Virus record (IMG/VR): IMGVR_UViG_3300025018_000006
Coordinates: 16,515-80,514 of that record
Source: a virus
Strand: one strand, 5' to 3'
Length of the DNA: 64,000 nt
Shown here piece by piece: positions 33,382 through 33,873 of this stretch. Position numbers and translations under genes: made by a program. The notes beneath the pieces were generated by a model. The model searched no databases and had not been told where the DNA came from. It was given only the letters and a program-made list of their open reading frames with translations. Every line of letters begins with the position of its first letter. Position 1 is the stretch's first letter.

Positions 33382-33873
33382 ATGAAAAACATATTATCAT
33401 TTTTCCCAATCGTTGAAAGAGCATTTGAAATATCACAGGTTAGCGATACATCAATAATACTGTATTACGATGAATCTTTGTATAAAAATGGTCATAAAGA
33501 TTGTCAATTACTTAGCAATGAACTTATGTTATCAAAGACTTATTCCGGATCATCAATTTATGCAAAAGTCATCAAACCTGATATTAATATGATTCTTGGT
33601 GAGACTAAAGGACATCAAACTATGGAAGGAATTATGCGTAAAGCTATTGAAATACGTAAGTGTAAACTCGACAACACCAGTCTTAATTTATCATCTAAAA
33701 GTTTATTGAAAAGAGCATATGAAAAATTTGATTTAAATGTTTCTCAAATCATATTAATTGAACGATTAGCAATTGCTATAGCTAAATTAGATAACAATAA
33801 ACTTATTGAAGCTCAACATATCGTTGAAGCAATAAATTACTCAATATTACCTAAAGACATGAAAATCTATTAA
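33382..33873 (+). CDS. Miniature ComM/YifB-like protein lacking the AAA+ core
   Basis: ERAFEIS (pre-Walker-A helix) and C-terminal LLKRAYEKFDL...AIAIAKLD...IEAQHIVEAINY (Mg_chelatase_C-like). Confidence 0.65.
   Translation: MKNILSFFPIVERAFEISQVSDTSIILYYDESLYKNGHKDCQLLSNELMLSKTYSGSSIYAKVIKPDINMILGETKGHQTMEGIMRKAIEIRKCKLDNTSLNLSSKSLLKRAYEKFDLNVSQIILIERLAIAIAKLDNNKLIEAQHIVEAINYSILPKDMKIY

Follow-up and report, generated by a model that had tools for sequence, protein, structure and literature searches.

The window, by which we mean the whole 64,000-base stretch analysed here, comes from a virus record of 80,514 bases, in which it spans positions 16515-80514; the record has direct terminal repeats and is rated 100% complete. 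The gene under study, here called mini-ComM, occupies positions 33382-33873 on the plus strand and encodes a protein of 163 aa, which we describe as an ATPase-less derivative of ComM/YifB on the evidence of its reading frame, a PF13335 match, profile alignments (hhalign), an AlphaFold2 model and a fold match. The initial annotation had seen an intact frame next to radC, and this was borne out: 163 open codons are present in an early or accessory region of the phage, and the upstream neighbour in the same rightward run, at 32809-33273 (+), encodes a RadC-like JAB domain (PF04002, E 3.1e-34; phrog_10276, E 7e-29). The two genes are separated by a 108-base AT-rich spacer. The run opens at 32089-32763 (+) with a gene that resembles RepL/Sta1 weakly and below cut-off (PF05732, 16.5 against 20.3 bits; NF053606, E 0.0044), and directly 3' of mini-ComM lies a 51-aa ORF at 33886-34041 (+) with only sub-threshold matches in Pfam and PHROGs. 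A terminator-like hairpin at 34303-34332 (+), an 8-pair stem followed by a T-run found by consensus scan only, is probably the end of the rightward run 32089-34041.

RNA coverage in one run was limited to 34390-34633 and 35938-36000 and included almost none of the mini-ComM region. Near-identical phage DNA was present in aquifer, cold-spring and hot-spring runs, and the near-identical field copies of the mini-ComM gene were alike at all but one of 492 bases, the exception being 33812 C>T (A144V). A hot-spring phage variant carried 7 differences in the 104 bases of 32801-32904, which take in the start of radC and the sequence just upstream, and one difference in the next 900 bases, which include the whole mini-ComM gene; 32801-32904 is a local variation hotspot at the RadC N-terminus. 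Just 3' of the accessory operon, 34113-34225 recurs as a short element with different flanks in many contigs from three metagenomes. Depth at this element goes from about 343 to 571 in one metagenome, several contigs match 34113-34218 only, with 4-9 differences, and the element looks like a repeated or mobile sequence. A 225-aa protein encoded at 34644-35321 (-), facing the accessory operon, belongs to PHROG 6186 (E 2e-15, unknown function) and to no Pfam family, and a small radical-SAM/4Fe-4S-like protein is encoded in the early region at 37309-37941 (-; PF13353, 29.5 bits; PF04055 below cut-off).

The phage genome combines a minus-strand head and tail module, with major head protein, portal and large terminase identified through PHROGs, and a rightward early/replication module that holds a PRTRC cassette, a DnaA-C protein, an SNF2 helicase and a primase-helicase. 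The PRTRC-type cassette is one rightward run at 39594-43154 and includes PRTRC_E (PF19556, E 1.4e-21), a prokaryotic E2 family D protein (PF14460, E 2.7e-24) and a ThiF/E1-like gene (PF00899, E 2.7e-13). The product of 46727-47380 has the DnaA C-terminal helix-turn-helix domain only (PF08299, E 1.3e-22), and its gene stands directly before that of an SNF2/ResIII helicase; the same pair is found 5 kb downstream of mini-ComM in another viral locus, L006. Against 40 records, none of which reached 60%, the terminase shows just 23-25% identity to crAss-like phage terminases, so the phage is a distant crAss-like relative, and a Bacteroidota host is our guess. The phage looks virulent. No gene anywhere in the 80.5-kb genome matched PF01078 or PF13541, the parts of a full ComM, and for PF13541 there was no match even at E<=1 in a search that was positive in 13 of 14 control genomes. 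The genome likewise contained no DprA-like gene (PF02481), and the idea of a phage-encoded DprA was dropped.

Three segments resembling ComM/YifB, in the right order, had been reported from the sequence alone, and hhalign, Pfam and structure alignment upheld all of them. The most C-terminal segment, residues 99-153, is the Mg_chelatase_C lid; PF13335, whose cut-off is 26 bits, scores 27.8 there (E 3.8e-6; positions 39-93 of the 94 in the model) and 28.5 bits in a six-frame search. Together with a profile match in the PDB, this delimits a three-helix AAA+ lid domain at residues 99-154 (33676-33843, +) that ends in H.AEAI.Y. When the mini-ComM family was compared with 30 ComM sequences by hhalign, residues 43-160 aligned to ComM 391-530 with 99.6% probability (E 6.1e-24). 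This alignment covers the middle segment as well, in which residues of about 55-92 correspond to the ComM stretch RIDIHVEV...E.S..IR.RV..AR; the helix equivalent to E.S..IR.RV..AR lies at residues 81-92 (33622-33657, +; DSSP and hhalign). Residues 37-62 (33490-33567, +; DSSP and alignments) form a helix and strand beta5 equivalent to the ComM LLDRIDIHVEV region, without its arginine finger. The first segment, an RAxEI helix and a strand at residues of about 5-30, came from a second hit in the comparison with 68 ComM sequences, which placed residues 5-30 on ComM 222-247, the helix and strand that in ComM run up to and into Walker A (E 3.6e-5, probability 71%); the three segments thus stand in the right order, and the structure alignment bears this out. 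DSSP and hhalign assign helix alpha0, with the RAxEI motif and R13, and strand beta1 to residues 4-29 (33391-33468, +).

Other searches point the same way or were silent. TIGR00368 (YifB) matched weakly, with residues 51-153 on positions 397-498 of a 499-position model and 18 bits against a cut-off of 362.4, and a family profile run against PDB sequences found ComM alone at E<1e-3 (8rxd, residues 442-496, E 6.9e-5). A word search near the protein's own length returned only mini-ComM itself (1 of 43 candidates), and a search among longer proteins returned one full-length ComM of 511 aa and no fused form. Neither tblastn nor blastn gave a match to mini-ComM among GenBank phages, PHROGs hold no family for it, and peptide-pattern scans with the single protein found relatives in 0 of 19 viral-contig stretches and 0 of 399 metagenome-contig stretches.

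We compared 80 family members (minis) with 68 ComM sequences column by column. The residues that serve catalysis in ComM were free to vary in the minis: the arginine finger, R410 in 100% of ComM, is most commonly N (29%) in the minis and G56 in mini-ComM, and the sensor-2 arginine, R495, again 100% in ComM, is most commonly K (20%) and S121 in mini-ComM. Also free in the minis were D409, R505, T506 and D509, each present in all 68 ComM, and R499, present in 96%, and the 21-residue insert that precedes the ComM lid (Q448, R451, N461, C473) was absent. The minis retained E432 (86%), H520 (96%), E523 (100%) and Y527 (94%; ComM numbering throughout), together with the hydrophobic faces of the three lid helices. 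R440, in the helix E.S..IR.RV..AR, stood at 90% in the minis and 97% in ComM, and is K87 in mini-ComM. In the minis' own numbering R13 and E149 were invariant in 80 of 80, and a dozen further positions were at least 90% conserved, among them H146, Y153 and P66, the last a family-specific residue (91%). Mini-ComM leaves the family consensus at four conserved columns (Q79, K87, V148, N152). The residue that would correspond, by motif counting, to the charged contact R497 of V. cholerae ComM was not conserved in the family.

Mini-ComM had no match to the Lon-protease-like ChlI domain (PF13541) or to the AAA+ core with Walker A and B (PF01078). The hhalign alignment of mini-ComM with ComM breaks off ahead of Walker A and resumes beyond the zinc finger, and the CPCG finger region is absent from it. 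Since the Lon domain, P-loop, Walker B, zinc finger, DNA inserts and both arginines are gone, mini-ComM is predicted to be incapable of ATP hydrolysis and DNA translocation.

The AlphaFold2 model, built from an 80-row alignment, was of high confidence (mean pLDDT 94.9, pTM 0.89), and DSSP assigned helices to residues 4-7, 9-21 and 37-47 and strands to 24-29 and 58-62. By the alignments, the two strands are beta1 and beta5. Foldseek alone gave only matches at E>=1e-2 against the PDB, the top rows all being MCM or ComM; when its list was realigned with VIA-align, ComM 8rxt_A came first (Z 11.5, rmsd 3.0, 150 residues; model 3-158 on chain 192-500). In an independent pass over 48,161 representative chains L. 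pneumophila ComM (8rxd_F) was again first, with Z 10.6, rmsd 3.0 and 150 aligned residues, and model residues 1-158 covered ComM 188-500. Structural similarity to ComM, a check set beforehand, was thus found, as the best fold in the whole set. The next matches were BchI (Z 9.5), MCM (8.8-7.2), RavA (8.4), a MoxR (7.1) and BrxL (5.9); ChlI/BchI, MCM, RavA/MoxR and BrxL share the fold of the retained elements but are active ATPases with complete cores, and the sequence signal of mini-ComM leads to ComM only. Below BrxL there were lid-sized matches only (Z <=5.3), including proteasome Rpt lids solved with chaperones (2dzn_B, 4jpo_C). Structure neighbours of mini-ComM in the Atlas were all YifB/ComM, and the BFVD viral structures contained no match to the model at E<=1e-3.

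In AAA+ proteins the central sheet has the order 5-1-4-3-2, so that beta1 and beta5 are adjacent. Because these two strands are neighbours, the loss can be read as one contiguous block, from the Walker A helix to the zinc finger, that leaves a compact platform bearing the lid. In the model, what is kept is the edge strands beta1 and beta5, their helices and the Mg_chelatase_C lid packed on them. The initial view of a ComM derivative without Walker A/B and most of the AAA+ core was therefore correct, but the core is not wholly gone, as the lid still rests on two of its strands and two of its helices. A complex prediction for mini-ComM with residues 212-537 of the ComM of a Bacteroidales bin, a stand-in and not the host's own protein, scored 0.00 in each of two runs made without controls and with both partners given as alignments, a result that bears on binding in neither direction.

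A HMMER search of 1.84 billion representatives at E<=1e-3 found 138 clusters of similar short proteins, most of 155-220 aa and aligned from residue 1-10 to residue 153-163. The family alignment consists of 80 of the 138, namely the best 90 minus 10 with a late match start or an odd length (P0024, P0027, P0039, P0044, P0059, P0064, P0065, P0070, P0076 and P0081). PF13335 was matched by 78 of these 80 and PF01078, weakly, by one. Mean column identity within the family is 21%, and pairwise identity between members never exceeds 51%. Mini-ComM has the hallmarks of the family: the RAxEI helix, the ..E..KP strand, a lid ending in H.AEAI.Y and a match from end to end of a protein of about 155-220 aa. 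Many members, of about 190-220 aa, have in addition a C-terminal tail with a weak consensus of its own after query residue 160, which mini-ComM does not have. Ten clusters that were checked were all metagenomic, and the sole name among them was 'hypothetical protein'. In a tree of the 80 minis and 68 ComM (126 shared columns; IQ-TREE quick mode, LG+G4, arbitrary root), one branch split the two sets with an SH-aLRT of 100, a value obtained from few columns and many rows; a single origin of the mini-ComM family is not contradicted by these sequences.

Relatives were found at 12 viral loci in a scan of IMG/VR, six of them over the full length and several on contigs of 60-76 kb. Cellular genomes gave a different picture. 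A pattern scan of 185,579 species genomes yielded 544 confirmed matches, and among the best 80 of these, 71 lay in frames of 498-565 aa (ordinary comM), five were cut by a contig end and four lay in frames of 132-411 aa; no match in these best 80 began before query residue 37. The family profile was also run against 301 genomes from the phylum of a Bacteroidales bin and matched in 290 of them. All of the 150 matches listed, of 300, began at profile position 41 or later, and nearly all were in frames of 512-606 aa. The short form was therefore absent from the matches listed for the 301 genomes and from the best 80 bacterial loci, and the family has so far been seen only in viral and metagenomic DNA. 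Two genomes of this phylum have a second, short match to the comM lid 2-3 kb from the full-length gene (G204:C11:80502-84168 and G022:C35:17643-19835), in stop-containing frames of 78 and 114 aa; elements that inserted at comM may have left them there as duplicated gene ends. In the literature, supplementary files aside, we found no description of such a truncated phage ComM-like family.

Neighbouring genes were compared across the window and eight viral loci (BLASTP, 1e-5). Mini-ComM was the sole gene common to all, and a conserved neighbour was accordingly discarded as a possible partner. The link to radC did not survive as a conserved association: none of 5 related viral records, of which two were 90% complete or better, gave a PF04002 match, so the adjacency is local and radC was set aside as a functional partner. 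Directly downstream of mini-ComM in L006, positions 6595-7077 encode a homologue of the antirestriction protein ArdA (PF07275, 28.7 bits). Locus L004 has an SNF2 helicase near mini-ComM and, at 7031-9234, a MoxR-type AAA ATPase paired with a DUF2201 metallopeptidase/VWA protein; L005 has a DUF7168 protein nearby. Ten further neighbour genes gave nothing above cut-off. That mini-ComM is the one gene shared by these loci suggests that it acts alone or on the host.

Taken together, the gene almost certainly encodes a pseudo-ATPase derived from the ComM/YifB helicase and belongs to a family of single origin that is, so far, viral and metagenomic only. With ComM/YifB (TIGR00368; L. pneumophila structures 8RXD and 8RXT) it shares homologous alpha0-beta1, the helix-beta5 region and the whole Mg_chelatase_C lid, whose consensus (LLK.A..RL.LS ... 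IA.L ... H.AEAIQY) is almost the same in both. Unlike ComM, it is virus-borne, has about one third of the length, and lacks the Lon-like domain, Walker A/B, the zinc finger, the DNA-binding inserts, both arginines and the 21-residue insert. AAA+ subunits that are catalytically dead and work through binding are familiar from the clamp loader (delta and delta') and from Mg-chelatase (ChlD). Mini-ComM resembles them as an AAA+ module without nucleotide chemistry; those subunits, in contrast, have a full five-stranded core and form complexes with active paralogues, whereas mini-ComM has two strands and no paralogue in its genome.

What such a protein would do was considered in the light of published work on ComM. 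In the portion of a preprint available to us, the C-terminal winged helix of DprA binds the Mg-chelatase C domain of ComM and recruits ComM to the recombination site, as shown by two-hybrid tests and the genetics of transformation in V. cholerae and H. pylori; the surface used for docking is distinct from those of hexamer formation and DNA contact, and a charged contact in V. cholerae ComM is not conserved between species (10.1101/2024.10.21.619469). The nuclease YraN also binds ComM in two-hybrid assays and cuts any ssDNA, according to the accessible part of 10.1101/2024.02.06.579203. ComM itself, according to the sections of PMC11612176 at hand, is a monomer, assembles into hexamers only when ATP and DNA are present, needs its Lon-like domain for oligomerisation, and in the ring carries C-terminal Mg-chelatase domains that surround the hexamer without mutual contact. 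A Bacteroidota DprA is described in the abstract of PMC6533540 as having a C-terminal Z-alpha domain.

Because the best-preserved part of ComM in these proteins is the DprA docking domain, set on a minimal piece of the core, we rank first the reading that mini-ComM is a partner decoy, to which we give a probability of roughly 35%. Mini-ComM would then be the smallest stable display of the ComM C-terminal domain. At an early stage of infection it would occupy, in a one-to-one complex, a host protein whose usual docking site is that domain; the first candidate is the C-terminal winged helix of DprA as recruiter of ComM to recombination intermediates, and the second the ComM-associated nuclease YraN. 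Such binding would keep ComM and the nuclease off D-loops or single-stranded intermediates of phage DNA; that estimate covers the binding as well as the choice of partner and any gain for the phage. The early or accessory setting of the gene, with the ArdA homologue as its next gene in another phage, fits this reading. A target for a decoy would be widely available, since ComM-length frames were found with the mini profile in 290 of the 301 genomes of the Bacteroidales bin's phylum. Some features of the sequences count against a decoy. The conserved positions shared by minis and ComM are mostly hydrophobic or helix-packing and may have been kept for the fold alone, the putative equivalent of the R497 contact varies within the family, and mini-ComM itself departs from the family consensus at the four conserved columns given above.

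The same retained elements could be put to use against ComM itself. A poison subunit would dock on the ATP face of a ComM protomer, offer no arginine finger, and cap or stall the hexamer. Homologous descent makes self-like contacts plausible, and both the lid and the helix-beta5 region, which in ComM carries the trans-acting arginine finger, have been kept, the latter without the arginine. ComM is moreover monomeric until it assembles on DNA, so a competitor could step in; but oligomerisation requires the Lon-like domain, assembly requires ATP and DNA, and the C-terminal domains of the ring do not touch one another (all from the sections of PMC11612176 at hand). Mini-ComM has neither the Lon domain nor an ATP site. 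Three of the five core strands are lost as well, along with R505, T506 and D509 of the lid, which are invariant in ComM. For a protein so reduced, the simple poison-subunit model is weakened, and we consider it improbable. The partner decoy is favoured over it because DprA docks on the C-terminal domain of ComM, whereas hexamerisation needs the Lon domain, ATP and DNA.

Nor need the target be ComM or its partners. The scaffold might have been re-used on another host AAA+ protein (MoxR/RavA-like or BrxL-like), on a defence sensor, or on a replication or recombination protein of the phage, which would accord with the long divergence from ComM (one long branch and 21% mean column identity within the family), with family-specific conserved residues such as P66 and D40, and with the C-terminal tail of about 40-60 aa, absent from ComM, in many members. 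ArdA and the MoxR-type AAA and VWA pair among the neighbours in other phages fit this explanation, as does the use of AAA+ lids as docking sites, the lid-only fold matches including the chaperone-bound Rpt lids (2dzn_B, 4jpo_C). The best-conserved stretch is nevertheless close to the lid consensus of ComM and not to that of MCM, RavA or BrxL, the PDB-sequence profile picks out ComM alone at E<1e-3, BrxL reaches a Z of 5.9 against 10.6 for ComM, and the eight viral loci and the window have no conserved phage-encoded neighbour that could serve as a partner. We regard a different target as possible but rather unlikely. That the gene is a functionless, decaying remnant of a captured comM would agree with the lack of a PHROG family or a named homologue, but we find it very hard to reconcile with 138 clusters that share the same deletion boundaries and intact frames, with invariant and near-invariant positions in the family, with a compact and very confident model (pLDDT 94.9), and with aquifer, cold-spring and hot-spring copies that are near-identical (one substitution per 492 bases); a remnant is most improbable.

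Few genes are knocked out by mobile elements as often as comM, and the usual argument is that they silence it to escape curing by transformation. Because the phage looks virulent, that argument is not directly applicable here. Mobile elements act on comM by insertion into the gene and through the plasmid sRNA RocRp, and whether ComM helps to remove mobile elements is posed as a question, in the part of a 2025 review available to us (PMC12378983). If the decoy reading is true, the outcome would be the same as with insertion or RocRp, with the ComM branch of recombination switched off, but those operate at the level of the gene or mRNA and mini-ComM would act in trans as a protein look-alike. 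No trans-acting protein look-alike of ComM appears in that part of the review (PMC12378983).

To the picture of the family this analysis contributes the tree with its single separating branch, the column list of catalytic residues that were lost, the survey of 301 genomes and the connection to the DprA docking site already published. The more general proposal, that phages of many lineages titrate DprA (or YraN) with a look-alike of the ComM recruitment domain and so shut the ComM branch of recombination in trans, is one that we consider rather unlikely. If true, this would be the first protein-level anti-ComM factor, and ComM/YraN would act against invading phage DNA, which would help to explain why mobile elements disable comM so frequently. 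The family would point to the C-terminal domain of ComM as the part worth neutralising, and to an encounter of ComM, DprA or YraN with phage DNA in infected cells. It would also be useful in annotating 'hypothetical' phage genes, and it offers protein design a natural example of an AAA+ module pared to two strands and a lid that still folds. As a viral copy of the partner-docking module of ComM, mini-ComM would be a ready-made probe of the role of ComM in the removal of mobile elements.
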